Of a stretch of DNA of 64,000 nucleotides, positions 59,363 through 64,000 are shown piece by piece. The stretch is taken from the NCBI RefSeq assembly GCF_009936135.1, contig NZ_CP047901.1, positions 631,927 to 695,926 of the forward strand. The letters run 5' to 3'. A program made the translations under genes and the position numbers. Position 1 is the stretch's first letter. Each line of letters opens with the position of its first letter. The notes under the pieces were generated by a model, which ran no database searches, had not been told where the DNA came from, and worked only from the letters and a program-made list of their open reading frames with translations. Origin of the DNA: Candidatus Chazhemtobacterium aquaticus (GTDB lineage Bacteria; Patescibacteriota; Microgenomatia; UBA1400; Chazhemtobacteraceae).

Positions 59363-60682
59363 TCAATTGGACCTTTTTCTATCCACCCCAAAAAAGCTGA
59401 TCCGATCACCTCTAAATCTTAAGTCAATCGTTTTTAATGGACCATTCCTGTGTTTGGCAATATTTAACTTGTAAGTTTCCAGATCCTCATCACTTTCCCT
59501 ATATAAGAACATCACCACATCAGCATCCTGCTCAATGCTTCCAGACTCCCTCAAATCAGATAGTTGAGGTACCTTAGTTCCTCTCTGCTCAATTGCCCTA
59601 GACAACTGGGATAACGCTACTACAGGTACCTTTAACTCTCTAGCTAGATTCTTTAATCCTTGTGAAATCGCCTGTACCTCCTGCACTCTACCATCAAAAC
59701 GTCCTGACGCTGTCGCCAACTGCAAATAGTCCATCATTATCATCTTCACTCCATACTCCACCTGCAACCTTCTTGCCTTTGTTCTCATCTCCAGAATAGA
59801 TATACCAGGCGTATCGTCAATAAACAAAGGACTATCGGCCAATACTCCCATTGCCTCAGACAATCTCGTAAACTCATCTGCCTTTAAGTTCCCTGTCTTC
59901 ATCTTCCACGCATCAATATCAGCCTGCGCAACCAGCAAGCGATCCACCAACTCAAGATTACTCATCTCCAATGAGAAGAACCCAACCGGTATCTTTAAAT
60001 CAACCGCTACGTGTCTGGCCATATTCAAAGCCAAAGAGGTTTTACCCATGCCCGGCCTGGCTGCTAAGATAAGCAAGTTGCTCTCCTGCATTCCCGCCAA
60101 GGCCGAGTCCAAGTCCTTAAAACCAGTCGGCACCCCCCTTATCCCCCCCGCTGCTTTGTGTAGCTCGTCAAGTCTGTCAAAACTCTCCGCCAAAGCATCC
60201 TTTACGTGAACAAAACCTCTCTTTACATTTCTCTGACTAAGTGAAAAAACAGCTTGCTCTGCTTGATCAAGCACGTTCTCTGTCTCACTTCCCTCATCAA
60301 AAGCTAGCGTCACCAACTCAGAAGCAGCTTCAATCATCTGCCTTTTTACATAATGATCCTTGACGATCTTGGCATACCCTGCCGCATGAGCCGCCGTCGG
60401 CACACTGTTAACCAACTCAGTTAAATAACTCACCCCCCCCACGCCCTTTAACCATTTCTTGCGCTTCAACCACTCAGATACCGTCACGACATCAATCGGA
60501 TCTCGATTCTCATAAAGCGTGCTCATCGCCTCATAGATATGCTGGTGTGCATCCTCATAAAACATGTCCTCCTTAAGCAACTCAGCCACCTCAATCATTG
60601 CATCCTTAGACATCAACAAAGAACCCAATACTGACCTCTCGGCATCTTTGGAATGTGGGGGTACTCTGACATCATTACTCAT
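59363..60682 (-). CDS. dnaB: Replicative DNA helicase
   Basis: PPHS..AE, AARPGMGKT, SLEM, DYLQL, LSQLSR, DLRESGSIEQDAD; no intein. Confidence 0.96.
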   Translation of the reverse strand: MSNDVRVPPHSKDAERSVLGSLLMSKDAMIEVAELLKEDMFYEDAHQHIYEAMSTLYENRDPIDVVTVSEWLKRKKWLKGVGGVSYLTELVNSVPTAAHAAGYAKIVKDHYVKRQMIEAASELVTLAFDEGSETENVLDQAEQAVFSLSQRNVKRGFVHVKDALAESFDRLDELHKAAGGIRGVPTGFKDLDSALAGMQESNLLILAARPGMGKTSLALNMARHVAVDLKIPVGFFSLEMSNLELVDRLLVAQADIDAWKMKTGNLKADEFTRLSEAMGVLADSPLFIDDTPGISILEMRTKARRLQVEYGVKMIMMDYLQLATASGRFDGRVQEVQAISQGLKNLARELKVPVVALSQLSRAIEQRGTKVPQLSDLRESGSIEQDADVVMFLYRESDEDLETYKLNIAKHRNGPLKTIDLRFRGDRISFFGVDRKRSN

Positions 60683-60743
60683 CTTAAACACCAATCTACA
60701 CTATTTTTGCCACTACACAACTTTATAATCCACAAAAATACAA

Positions 60744-61403
60744 CTAAACCTCCAAAACCACTATCTCAGTCTCTTCCGGCAAACTCGTCTTACTCAATGA
60801 CAGCTTTTCCTCTCTCCTTACACCACCATAATCTGCCTTCTCTAAAAACTCATCCACCGTTACCAAGTCTTTAAAGGACTCAGTCGAGCTCTTCACTCTA
60901 TAATGCATCGGCACCACAATTGATGGTGACAGCTGTTCAATCACTTTAACAGCATCACCAGGTCCCAGCGTGTACGTACCTCCCACCGGCAACAACAATA
61001 CATCAACCGGACCAATCGTTGACACCTGCTTATCACTCAACACATGGCCCAAATCACCCAAATGAGCCACAATCACTCCCTCTATTTGTATTACATAAAT
61101 AATGTTCTCACCTCTTTTTGATCCTTCCTCATCATCATGCCAACTTTTTACCCCGATCACTCCGATCCCGCTTGCCTCATACTCACCCACTCTATCAATC
61201 ACAAATGGTTCACTCCTATTAGATGTTCCACTAACCTTACTTACCTGATTATGATCCTCATGATTATGAGACACCGTCACAATCTCTGCCGATACTCTCG
61301 GGAAATCCACCCCTACCATCTTGCTATCAAAAGGATCAGTTACCACACTCCCTGACTTGCCTCTGATCTTAAAACTGGAGTGGCCCAAATACTTAATATC
61401 CAT
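60744..61403 (-). CDS. MBL-fold metallohydrolase
   Basis: YLGHSSF, TDPF, SHNHEDH, HLGD, PMHY. Confidence 0.88.
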   Translation of the reverse strand: MDIKYLGHSSFKIRGKSGSVVTDPFDSKMVGVDFPRVSAEIVTVSHNHEDHNQVSKVSGTSNRSEPFVIDRVGEYEASGIGVIGVKSWHDDEEGSKRGENIIYVIQIEGVIVAHLGDLGHVLSDKQVSTIGPVDVLLLPVGGTYTLGPGDAVKVIEQLSPSIVVPMHYRVKSSTESFKDLVTVDEFLEKADYGGVRREEKLSLSKTSLPEETEIVVLEV

Positions 61404-61480
61404 CCCAATCAATATATCACACTTAAAATTGACCAATCAGCTTGCACCTCAACCCCGAAGCTTGTATACTCTGGCCTGCT

Positions 61481-61948
61481 ATGCGCAAGGAAGTCCTCAT
61501 TGCCATCATACTTGGCCTTATTTTAGGCTCTATCCTTGTTTACGGTATTTACACCGCCAACCAAGCCTCCTCCACCTATACTGATAGCCCGACTGAAGAA
61601 ACCAATCAAAGCCAAACTGAAAACTCCCCGTCAAACAACCAGGCCCTAACCGTCAGTTCTCCCCAAGATGGAGATATCTTCTATACTCCCCAAGCTACCA
61701 TCAGTGGTCAAACTGATCCCCAAAACGCCCTTGTTATCATCACTGAAGATGACCATCTAGTTCCAGACATCAACGAAGACGGCTCCTTTTCTCAATCCAT
61801 TACTCTAATCCGCGGCGGAAACTTAATTCAAGTAACCTCAATTACCCCATCAGGCCAACGCCAAGACTCGTATCTCAATCTGGTTTATACCTCGCCTCCT
61901 ACTGAGTCAGATAGCGACGATGACACTCAATCAAATGACGAAAACTAA
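61481..61948 (+). CDS. Membrane-anchored Ig-like domain protein
   Basis: MRKEV TM; LTVSSPQDG...ISGQT...GSFS..ITL..GGN.I. Confidence 0.7.
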   Translation: MRKEVLIAIILGLILGSILVYGIYTANQASSTYTDSPTEETNQSQTENSPSNNQALTVSSPQDGDIFYTPQATISGQTDPQNALVIITEDDHLVPDINEDGSFSQSITLIRGGNLIQVTSITPSGQRQDSYLNLVYTSPPTESDSDDDTQSNDEN

Positions 61949-61949
61949 C

Positions 61950-62801
61950 ATGAACCATAACCCGATCAAAACCTTAACAATCCTTCTTCTTCTCATTATC
62001 ACCCTCGCTCTGCTGCCACTCAACCTAACTCTTGCTCAAGAAGACGAAGCTACCTCTTCAAGCACCAAAGAAGAAATCGAGAAATCTCTCCAAGACCGTA
62101 TTAAAAAAGCTCTGGACGAAAATCTTGACACAGCTCAGGAGGTCGTTGAACAAAGTCAGCTTAAAGCCGTAGTTGGAGTAATAGACTCACTCACCCAGTC
62201 CCAAATCACTGTCAGAGTCAACCCAGACACTACCGCCGAATATCTTCACCAGGTTAGCTTCACCAGTGAAACACAACTTACTAAGTCTGGCAAATCCATA
62301 GACTCTGATGACCTTGAGATAAACAGCTACATTATCGCCATCGGCCAACCCAGCTCCTCTACTTTACTTCAAGCCGACCGCATTATCTTAGACACCTATA
62401 CCAAACCCAGTATTTACGTCCAAGTAGCTTACGCAACCATAACCGATATTGACCTAGACAACGACACCATTACCCTACTAAACTCCCACCCAGAACTTGA
62501 AGAACCTCTTGATATTACCTCAAAAACTAACATCCTTCTTAATGGTCAAGCTCAAGAGATTTCTGATTTACAGCCCAACCAAAGAACCACCGTCATCTTC
62601 ACTGTCAACGAATCAAGAGACACCGTTACCCTAAACACCCTTATTGTCTTCCCTCTTGATCCCAACAACCCGACTCAAACACCAACCGAAGAACAAGCCT
62701 CCACTTGCGGCGACGGCATTTGCCAGAATGTTGCTTGTTTTGGCATGGACTGTCCCGATCCAGAAACACCCGAAACTTGTCCAGCCGACTGTGCTGAATA
62801 A
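61950..62801 (+). CDS. Exported protein with beta-rich repeats and a C-terminal Cys-rich module
   Basis: Signal peptide; C-terminal CGDGICQNVACFGMDCPDPETPETCPADC. Confidence 0.7.
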   Translation: MNHNPIKTLTILLLLIITLALLPLNLTLAQEDEATSSSTKEEIEKSLQDRIKKALDENLDTAQEVVEQSQLKAVVGVIDSLTQSQITVRVNPDTTAEYLHQVSFTSETQLTKSGKSIDSDDLEINSYIIAIGQPSSSTLLQADRIILDTYTKPSIYVQVAYATITDIDLDNDTITLLNSHPELEEPLDITSKTNILLNGQAQEISDLQPNQRTTVIFTVNESRDTVTLNTLIVFPLDPNNPTQTPTEEQASTCGDGICQNVACFGMDCPDPETPETCPADCAE

Positions 62802-62810
62802 CCACAATTC

Positions 62811-62839
62811 TTGACATTCCCTCTTTATTCATTTAAACT
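62811..62839 (+). promoter_or_regulatory. Sigma70 promoter of the T-box/tRNA-His unit
   Basis: TTGACA-17 bp-TAAACT. Confidence 0.8.
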
Positions 62840-62867
62840 TACAACCACTTTAACAGATAGTCTATAA

Positions 62868-63115
62868 AGCGCTAAGTGAGAGTCACGCCTCACAAGCTGC
62901 TGGCCAAATACCAGACGGAAGTCATCGCCGTACAAAGGATCACACCTGATGTCACCCAGTTGGGTAACCGAGTCGGGACCAAGAGCTGCCATGCTCATAA
63001 CTTGGCAGAATGAAGATGGGACCGCGGGGTCCTTTTTTGTTGGTCAAAATCCAACAAGATAGCCCTCGTTCTTCACTTACTACGCACGTAGTAGGTGGAA
63101 AACGGGGGCTTTTTT
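62868..63115 (+). ncRNA. T-box riboswitch, His-specific (transcriptional)
   Basis: T-box AATGAAGATGGGACCGCG (63009-63026); antiterminator GAAGA/TCTTC and GCGGGG/CCTCGT with a 7-nt UGGGACC bulge; overlapping terminator at 63061-63115; short stem I with CAC in its loop. Confidence 0.8.
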
Positions 63116-63123
63116 GTCCTCAT

Positions 63124-63200
63124 GGTGGGTGTAGCTCAACCTGGTCAGAGCACATGCCTGTGGAGCATGAGGCTGGGGGTTCAACTCCCCTCACCCACCC
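63124..63200 (+). tRNA. tRNA-His(GTG)
   Basis: Encoded G-1, CATGC-CTGTGGA-GCATG anticodon arm, C73 discriminator. Confidence 0.95.
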
Positions 63201-63248
63201 CTAGTCTGACAGTTGATGTCAGACATAGATAGAAAGGAGGTCATCACC

Positions 63249-63266
63249 ATGTTCGGTGATCACTAA
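63249..63266 (+). other. Mini-ORF MFGDH with strong SD
   Basis: AGAAAGGAGG-8 nt-ATG TTC GGT GAT CAC TAA. Confidence 0.5.
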
Positions 63267-63335
63267 CTTCTAACCGATAAGGAGTGGTGTAATACCACAT
63301 CACTCCTTATCCAACTACCAATTACATACAAAAAA

Positions 63336-64000
63336 ATGAATGCAGTTGACCTAACTAAAAAACTAATTTCCATTCCCTCTTACGTCGACAGCTCGACCAA
63401 CGAACGGGAAATTGCCGAATATGTCTACCAATACTTATCCAAGATCTCCTGGTTAACCACTGTTAAACAAAATGTAGAAAATAACCGATTCAACGTTATC
63501 GCCTACTCATCTATGTCTCCAAAACTACTACTTGTCGGCCACCTAGACACTGTCCAACCATCAGCCAACTGGCAGACATCACCAACTCAACCAATCCAAA
63601 AAAACAATACCATTATTGGCCTTGGCTCTAGTGACATGAAATCAGGCCTTGCCGCCATATTAAGTAGTCTGCCAAAGAAAAAACCAGCTACCGAACTAAT
63701 GATTCTATTCTATGTTGACGAAGAATATGATTTTGCCGGCATGCAGCGGTTCACCCAAGAGTACCAAAACAAAATACAACCCCAGTTAATCGTCTCGGCT
63801 GATGGTGATGATTGTGCTTTTGGTTACGCCTGCCGAGGCCTCATCGAGTTTTCCGCCATCATTAAAGGTAAATCTGGTCATGCAGCCAACCCCGACTCAG
63901 GTATCAACGCTATCACTAACACCACTACAGCTATAAAACAACTAACCAGAAAAATTAAAACCTACTCATCGCCAGAATTAGGTGCATCTACACTTAATCT
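63336..64000 (+). CDS. M20 family (ArgE/DapE-like) metallopeptidase, runs off window end
   Basis: Manual translation: LTKKLISIPS, GHLDTV, GLGSSDMKSG, VDEEY, GHAA.P.SGINA. Confidence 0.88.
   Translation, partial: MNAVDLTKKLISIPSYVDSSTNEREIAEYVYQYLSKISWLTTVKQNVENNRFNVIAYSSMSPKLLLVGHLDTVQPSANWQTSPTQPIQKNNTIIGLGSSDMKSGLAAILSSLPKKKPATELMILFYVDEEYDFAGMQRFTQEYQNKIQPQLIVSADGDDCAFGYACRGLIEFSAIIKGKSGHAANPDSGINAITNTTTAIKQLTRKIKTYSSPELGASTLN

Follow-up and report, generated by a model that had tools for sequence, protein, structure and literature searches.

A putative compact His-specific T-box leader upstream of a spare tRNA-His gene in Candidatus Chazhemtobacterium aquaticus

The leader upstream of a tRNA-His(GUG) gene of Candidatus Chazhemtobacterium aquaticus (801,504-base genome) reads as a His-specific T-box of compact form, and it likely lets transcription into a spare tRNA-His gene, an M20 hydrolase gene, the sole hisS of the genome and an EamA transporter gene when uncharged tRNA-His accumulates. 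The window is the whole 64-kb stretch of DNA analysed here (NZ_CP047901.1, 631,927-695,926), and positions are counted from its first base. A previous sequence-only reading had described a promoter, stem I, stem III, antiterminator, terminator and tRNA-His gene; all of them are found where it had placed them, as read from the sequence and, for the tRNA, with ARAGORN. It had overlooked the small stem II, the IIA/B pseudoknot, an extra helix, the hairpin T1, and hisS beyond the window. The features are as follows.

62811-62839, plus strand: sigma-70-type promoter, TTGACA (62811-16), 17 nt, TAAACT (62834-39); presumed leader start
62868-62898, plus strand: ultrashort stem I, 31 nt; basal helix AGC 62868-70/GCU 62896-98, upper helix GUGAG 62876-80/CUCAC 62889-93
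62884-62886, plus strand: His specifier CAC in the stem I loop
62900-62914, plus strand: miniature stem II, all 5 pairs covarying, loop conserved as CAAA(A)U type
62915-62943, plus strand: stem IIA (62915-18/62928-31) and IIB pseudoknot (62921-26 with 62938-43), 5 of 6 IIB pairs formed here
62945-62977, plus strand: extra conserved helix between pseudoknot and stem III; 8 of 9 pairs covary
62986-63008, plus strand: stem III
63011-63075, plus strand: antiterminator; A1 63011-16/63070-75, bulge UGGGACC 63017-23, A2 63024-29/63064-69, with a hairpin inserted in the loop
63018-63038, plus strand: T1, 6-bp hairpin and U6 burying the GGG of the T-box bulge; putative first terminator or pause
63062-63115, plus strand: T2, main intrinsic terminator; hairpin 63062-63109, U6 63110-15, -33.2 kcal/mol, mutually exclusive with the antiterminator
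63124-63201, plus strand: tRNA-His(GUG) with G-1 (63124) and C73 (63199), CCA not fully encoded (ARAGORN 63125-63201)
63233-63266, plus strand: strong Shine-Dalgarno sequence and 5-codon ORF MFGDH (ATG 63249), last codon CAC
63276-63311, plus strand: 15-bp hairpin, no U-tract, before the M20 start
63336-64000, plus strand: M20 (ArgE/DapE-like) hydrolase, 379 aa, Pfam PF01546, continuing beyond the window

At E 10, an Rfam scan of 60000-64000, the model check proposed with the sequence-only reading, returned tRNA only and no T-box match, and RF00230 found a single match in the genome, elsewhere than the His leader. A profile built from 59 relatives, with the leader's own sequence left out, gave the His leader as its sole genome match (92.1 bits, E 9.5e-27), and the 5' half of this profile alone scored it at 44.4 bits (E 6.5e-12). 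The predicted fold has a z-score of -4.33, and none of 200 shuffled sequences was equally stable. By itself the promoter match is not above chance (one found, shuffle mean 1.1). Among the matches listed, 71 of 80 family leaders have a promoter-like site ahead of stem I, and 3 of 81 have one within the terminator region. A separate promoter for the tRNA had been named as a refuting outcome, and between 62600 and 63500 none was found beyond the upstream one. The same genome also holds a canonical T-box above the Rfam cut-off (L001, G000:C1:55237-55490), with a lysS-like gene upstream and two unknown enzymes downstream.

BLAST of the region against 101 related genomes returned leader matches, and ten leaders, this one included, share the invariant sequences GAGUCACG and AUGGGACCGCGG. 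A GTDB scan with the antiterminator pattern alone yielded at least 122 loci; the pattern fixes the antiterminator core, the invariance of which in relatives is thus partly by construction. The matches listed comprise 121 distinct loci. Scored on a middle-part profile, 95 of these attained 13 bits or more, and the 26 below 13 bits were dropped; inspected by eye, the dropped rows include a family member (L115) and two long-stem His T-boxes (L125, L130). Together with seven non-duplicate loci from the related genomes, this one included, the 95 make up 102 leaders, of which 81 are non-redundant and 60 entered the alignment, the omitted ones being mostly those with long insertions. Most source records bear Microgenomates-group, Saccharibacteria or other Patescibacteria names; a number carry other labels. 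Of 151 genomes in the order, 15 gave a leader-model score of at least 98 bits, several of these being training members; across the phylum, 11 of 151 genomes matched. Family members from Saccharibacteria look translational. L125 and L130 come from Parcubacteria-type records and have tRNA-His behind them and no T1. Three His-type UGGG leaders from other classes of the phylum (L279-L281) have a different, longer stem I region.

Covariation among relatives, another check proposed earlier, bears out the fold: in the alignment of 60 leaders, taken from the matches listed, 91.8% of cells are paired, compared with 75.3% for shuffled columns and 36-47% for slid partners, and two-sided changes are seen in 34 of 46 pairs. 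These changes support a predicted architecture in which an ultrashort, kinked stem I is followed by a small stem II, the IIA/B pseudoknot, the extra helix and stem III. In stem I, six of seven pairs show two-sided changes, and the 5-bp upper helix is closed by an 8-nt loop (62881-88); its internal loop is K-turn-like, AA/AA here and mostly GA in relatives, a kink judged from sequence alone. Stem II is a hairpin of 4-5 bp in which the S-turn motif AGUA occurs in none of the 60 aligned leaders, and all four aligned pseudoknot pairs change on both sides.

The assignment to histidine, which the sequence-only reading had based on the terminal-loop CAC, the discriminator and the downstream gene, is supported by the family. 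Among the matches listed, CAC is present in the stem I loop of all 102 leaders, 95 of which were picked without using stem I, and in 97 of 102 it lies within one of three 9-mers. What counts is the hairpin context, since 11 of the 26 dropped rows also have a loose YCACG upstream. The leader model picked up 61 sister loci of the same build with other loops. In 17 of these CGC replaces CAC, always together with UGGU (17 of 17), and ten precede argH (seven; one partial and below the cut-off), argS (one) or tRNA-Arg (three; one shared with argH), while seven have no Arg-linked gene among those scanned. Sisters with UGG precede trpS or tRNA-Trp, and sisters with CCC precede proS or an ornithine cyclodeaminase gene. 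Since the loop triplets track Arg, Trp and Pro genes, the specifier position is fixed. The frames UCA and ACG of the same loop are rejected because the one-base change to CGC accompanies Arg genes. The second CAC (62941-43), which had been put forward as an alternative specifier, is discarded as well; it belongs to a strand of the pseudoknot, and only 2 of 60 aligned leaders retain it. Compact Arg, Trp and Pro T-boxes (L172-L228) are spread across the order, and several lead tRNA-Arg or tRNA-Trp genes.

Among the matches listed, a His-linked gene (HisS, HisG, HutH or His-racemase-like) is found behind 52 of the 68 leaders with at least 1.5 kb of downstream sequence, and none of the four behind the other 16. 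The variable base of the bulge is G opposite C73 of tRNA-His, as had been noted earlier; yet this match is weaker evidence than it had seemed since mature tRNA-His may have C73 base-paired to G-1, and TBDB drops the discriminator test for His (both from the part of PMC7778990 available). UGGG conservation, which had been proposed for checking alongside that of CAC, is partly set by the search pattern, and UGGG is lost in G002.

In G002, the closest syntenic relative (L185), UGGG and stem III are gone, and five further leaders (L171 of G156, L282 of G305, L361, L373, L376) are without antiterminator; the full mechanism is hence dispensable in some lineages. These six, and the Trp leaders L193, L221 and L224, keep the specifier and the decoding half and have hisS, trpS or a tRNA gene preceded by one or two terminator-like hairpins, which may reflect decay or else sensing independent of charge. 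By identity, the closest leader is L006 of G093 (68%); it precedes a 446-aa orphan ORF with hisS further on. Its output is possibly translational; the start codon of the ORF lies at the end of the second hairpin.

The tRNA-His gene, the G-1 of which follows the T2 U-tract after 8 nt, is a spare copy: another tRNA-His, 69% identical to the T-box-linked one, lies in a tRNA cluster of the genome. Whether the linked gene was the only tRNA-His of the genome had been posed as a check, and the answer is negative. Among the matches listed, tRNA-His stands behind 31 of 102 leaders (30 by ARAGORN, one by model); of 83 metagenome leaders, 32 have it too. It also lies downstream of the two long-stem His T-boxes mentioned above, and elsewhere tRNA-Arg follows three Arg leaders and tRNA-Trp seven Trp leaders; two of the three Arg cases hold only tRNA-Arg(UCU), not the isoacceptor reading CGC. 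Copies were found with a covariance model, as a degenerate pattern caught none of five known positives. An unlinked second tRNA-His is present in 28 of 32 genomes with a linked one and was not found in four draft assemblies (G158, G164, G172, G178; at most 150 candidates scored). All 25 control genomes have one tRNA-His match above 80 bits each, the next best scoring at most 74.9 bits (the five checked were Arg, Gly or Asp), a count that could miss some copies because divergent linked tRNA-His can score as low as 67 bits. In the genome of Candidatus Chazhemtobacterium aquaticus, RNase P RNA and a gene of the CCA/poly(A) polymerase family are present. A duplicate tRNA-Val(GAC) and tRNA-Asp(GTC) lie adjacent at G000:C1:732416-732568 of the same genome, with other copies in the window.

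Gene order confirms tRNA-His and M20 behind the terminator, as had been described. The unit does not stop there, however: hisS (G000:C1:696404-697624, outside the window) starts 2 nt after M20 and is followed by an EamA transporter gene. It matches TIGR00442 with 353.6 bits (cut-off 286.75) and is the only hisS of the genome. The target is thus not solely a non-classical one, as had been supposed; hisS is a classical T-box target whose product removes the signal. The M20 protein falls below all NCBIfam cut-offs, and M20 orthologue loci have a His-linked neighbor in 13 of 18 cases. Since a HisG query of the genome found nothing, the likely role of the M20 enzyme is histidine release from a peptide or an acyl derivative; the M20 family includes Xaa-His dipeptidases.

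Between the tRNA and M20, the mini-ORF MFGDH ends in G-D-H(CAC)-stop, as does MRINLGDH in L092 (minus strand, after tRNA-His), and together with the long hairpin such an ORF might possibly act as a second, ribosome-based His sensor. G-D-H-stop mini-ORFs occur in 2 of 102 leaders among the matches listed and in none of 83 metagenome leaders. As a widespread leader peptide, the His-ending mini-ORF found no support beyond these two cases (4 of 400 other genomes, versus 7 control matches). In other loci of the family, the His T-box lies directly before histidine ammonia-lyase (L014, with hutH above cut-off, and L028), so that a degradative enzyme is apparently induced on His shortage, which is counter-intuitive. 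In L029, L030, L031 and L091 it precedes a VanX-like dipeptidase and a histidine-racemase-like DapF-fold gene, a pair that suggests salvage of D-His peptides.

The switch as read earlier, an antiterminator with a UGGG-ACC bulge and an exclusive terminator before the tRNA, agrees with coordinates and with folding by transcript length. In these calculations T1 is the earliest structure, shares the transcript almost equally with the antiterminator at 63076-63090 and comes back together with T2; with UGGG blocked, the antiterminator takes 97-100% at the 63076-63090 stage. At equilibrium, the full-length transcript folds into T2 even with UGGG blocked, hence the switch must be kinetic. T2 with its U-tract is found in 64 of 81 leaders among the matches listed; a simple terminator scan flagged T1 and missed T2. 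Two strains, about 3% divergent in flanking genes, have no listed change from 62822 (in the second from 62916) to 63046. G63105A in all four RNA runs turns a U-G into a U-A pair and so improves T2, and G63088A in one strain and run breaks its loop-closing pair. One RNA-run contig covers 62916-63591, across T1 and T2 into M20. RNA-run contigs and coverage gaps were not counted as evidence because the libraries may contain DNA and the contigs have no ends, strand or level.

As the most likely mechanism, we propose that the GUG anticodon of uncharged tRNA-His would dock on CAC, and that its free CCA end, probably with C73, would pair with UGGG, tipping the near-even balance from T1 to the antiterminator before T2 closes. 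Polymerase would then proceed into tRNA-His, M20, hisS and EamA. After excision and CCA addition, new tRNA-His would add both sensor and substrate in a feed-forward manner, and HisRS made from the same transcript would charge tRNA-His and shut the loop. We infer all of these tRNA contacts, the read-through, the processing and the feedback. Several observations stand against this reading of the leader as a His-dependent transcriptional switch: its stem II is without the S-turn that known short-stem T-boxes need (available part of PMC10482949), transcriptional T-boxes are said to generally require a long stem I (available part of PMC7583486), C73 may be tied up with G-1 (again from the accessible portion of PMC7778990), T1 is without two-sided change, some relatives have lost the antiterminator, 16 of 68 His and 7 of 17 Arg leaders have no linked gene among those scanned, and G63088A breaks the loop-closing pair of T2 in one strain.

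How T1 works is the point on which readings diverge. The hairpin (63018-63033, -9.7 kcal/mol, followed by U6) pairs the bulge GGGACC with GGUCCU and would most likely act as a leaky terminator or pause, giving a stem I without elbow-binding platform more time for docking. It could also be a true tRNA-gated terminator, in which the docked CCCA end pairs the emerging UGGG before the antiterminator forms, giving two checkpoints in series; we regard this as possible but doubtful. Apart from its stability and U-tract, such gating is favored by the occurrence of T1 in 77 of 81 leaders (among the matches listed), its 3' arms being of several kinds, by its being the only terminator left in the truncated leaders L171, L361, L373 and L376, by a compensated C-G pair in G002, where UGGG is lost, and by the lack of T1 in two His T-boxes that share UGGG and have a long stem I. 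It is at odds with the absence of two-sided change (0 of 6 pairs in the 60 aligned leaders, the 5' arm being fixed by the search pattern) and with glyQS, where the bulge is exposed by antiterminator folding (PMC13001445, in the part available). Moreover, the Arg, Trp and Pro sisters are without T1, and many carry a hairpin and U-tract inside stem III instead, upstream of the bulge and out of reach of the tRNA 3' end, so that a pause fits better.

A different question is what the tRNA gene does in the unit. The T-box might serve hisS alone, the extra tRNA-His being a passenger, that is, a processing or stability element or the relic of a mobile His module with no meaningful feedback. No tRNA gene follows 71 of 102 leaders (among the matches listed), a housekeeping copy exists, and linked copies are somewhat more degenerate, with a canonical T-loop in 20 of 26 compared with 25 of 26 housekeeping ones. 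We nevertheless hold such a passenger to be unlikely, as the tRNA is always cognate (His after His, Arg after the three Arg, Trp after the seven Trp leaders), and linked copies keep anticodon and acceptor identity while averaging about 68% identity to the housekeeping one, a sign of long retention. The opposite extreme, put forward in the sequence-only reading, is RNA-only positive feedback with tRNA-His controlling its own supply. The position of the gene 8 nt behind the terminator and the lack of a promoter of its own suit this idea; the second tRNA-His contradicts it as sole supply and makes the loop supplementary, the incompletely encoded CCA means that the tRNA needs enzymes for its maturation, and the sole hisS in the unit adds negative feedback. 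In this strong form it is improbable, and sole hisS and spare tRNA-His together rather suggest feed-forward with a built-in shut-off. Finally, the leader might be a decaying T-box that now works as a constitutive leaky attenuator, given that relatives, the nearest one (G002) included, have lost the antiterminator and that this copy has an 8-nt loop, an AA/AA kink and one pseudoknot mismatch. With all helices and both switch states intact, no listed change up to 63046 in the two strains, and the improvement of T2 by G63105A, decay appears very improbable.

Going beyond the preferred reading of a tRNA-His-dependent switch, we may speculate, with some reserve, that candidate-phyla bacteria have a new T-box class that grips tRNA without elbow platform or S-turn, has two checkpoints in series because the 3' end of the tRNA blocks a terminator hairpin made from the bulge, and amplifies its signal via a spare copy of the sensed tRNA. 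Truncated members that retain no more than the decoding half and one terminator may then sense total tRNA regardless of charge. Within the T-box family, transcriptional control without long stem I or S-turn, a cognate tRNA gene as cargo and T1 over the UGGG bulge appear unusual. The leaders extend T-box control to a bacterial radiation for which no earlier report was found, in a form missed by Rfam. As the family goes against the general long-stem-I rule reviewed in PMC7583486 (part available), it offers a candidate minimal tRNA sensor of about 250 nt, testable in vitro without culturing. Natural His and Arg leaders differ by one specifier-loop base and provide a ready-made specificity swap. 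The cognate tRNA gene under the switch suggests that small-genome bacteria meet amino-acid shortage by raising tRNA and synthetase jointly, and the specifier assigns an amino acid to downstream orphan genes, such as the M20 family here.

Our literature search found no report of T-box control in the candidate-phyla radiation or Patescibacteria. T-box leaders before tRNA genes have reportedly been described in Clostridium by Gutierrez-Preciado et al. in 2009, with canonical long stems and in few Firmicutes, and the tRNA-gene arrangement is hence probably not without precedent. Compared with these, placement before the sensed tRNA is the same, whereas here the class is compact, frequent in a candidate-phyla lineage and has the synthetase in the unit. 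The available portion of PMC2494555 gives ligases, transport and biosynthesis genes as T-box targets, and the accessible parts of PMC10907184, PMC4052509 and PMC11404447 hold nothing on tRNA genes as T-box targets. The TBDB main text, as far as available, never names Patescibacteria (PMC7778990), although its tables could hold CPR entries.

With class III T-boxes (Nocardia farcinica/Mycobacterium ileS), as described in the available part of PMC10482949, the His leader shares a short stem I without elbow-binding motif, the apical-loop specifier, a basal kink, the stem IIA/B pseudoknot, stem III and the UGGN bulge. The two differ in the loop (8-9 nt in the His family, 5-6 nt in class III), in stem II (a 4-5 bp hairpin without S-turn versus a long one with S-turn), in the extra helix after the pseudoknot, which the His family has and class III ileS has not, and in the specifiers, which are His, Arg, Trp and Pro in the compact family and Ile in class III. 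Output differs as well, being an intrinsic terminator with U6 followed by the tRNA gene here and sequestration of the ribosome site there. With class I (Bacillus subtilis tyrS, RF00230), the leader has in common the A1/bulge/A2 antiterminator exclusive with an intrinsic terminator and cognate synthetase or biosynthesis targets. Unlike class I, it lacks the S-turn, the internal specifier loop and a long stem I bearing the distal double T-loop motif, gives no RF00230 match at E 10, and carries a hairpin and U-tract over the bulge and a cognate tRNA gene as first cistron. In B. subtilis glyQS, pausing before the decision point improves tRNA anchoring, and these programmed pauses are a precedent for reading T1 as a pause, although the stem I of glyQS is long, its leader lacks a stem II domain, and no bulge-burying hairpin is described for it in the part of PMC13001445 available. 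From its predicted fold, the His leader thus appears to combine a class I-like output with a class III-like stem I, failing one defining feature of each.
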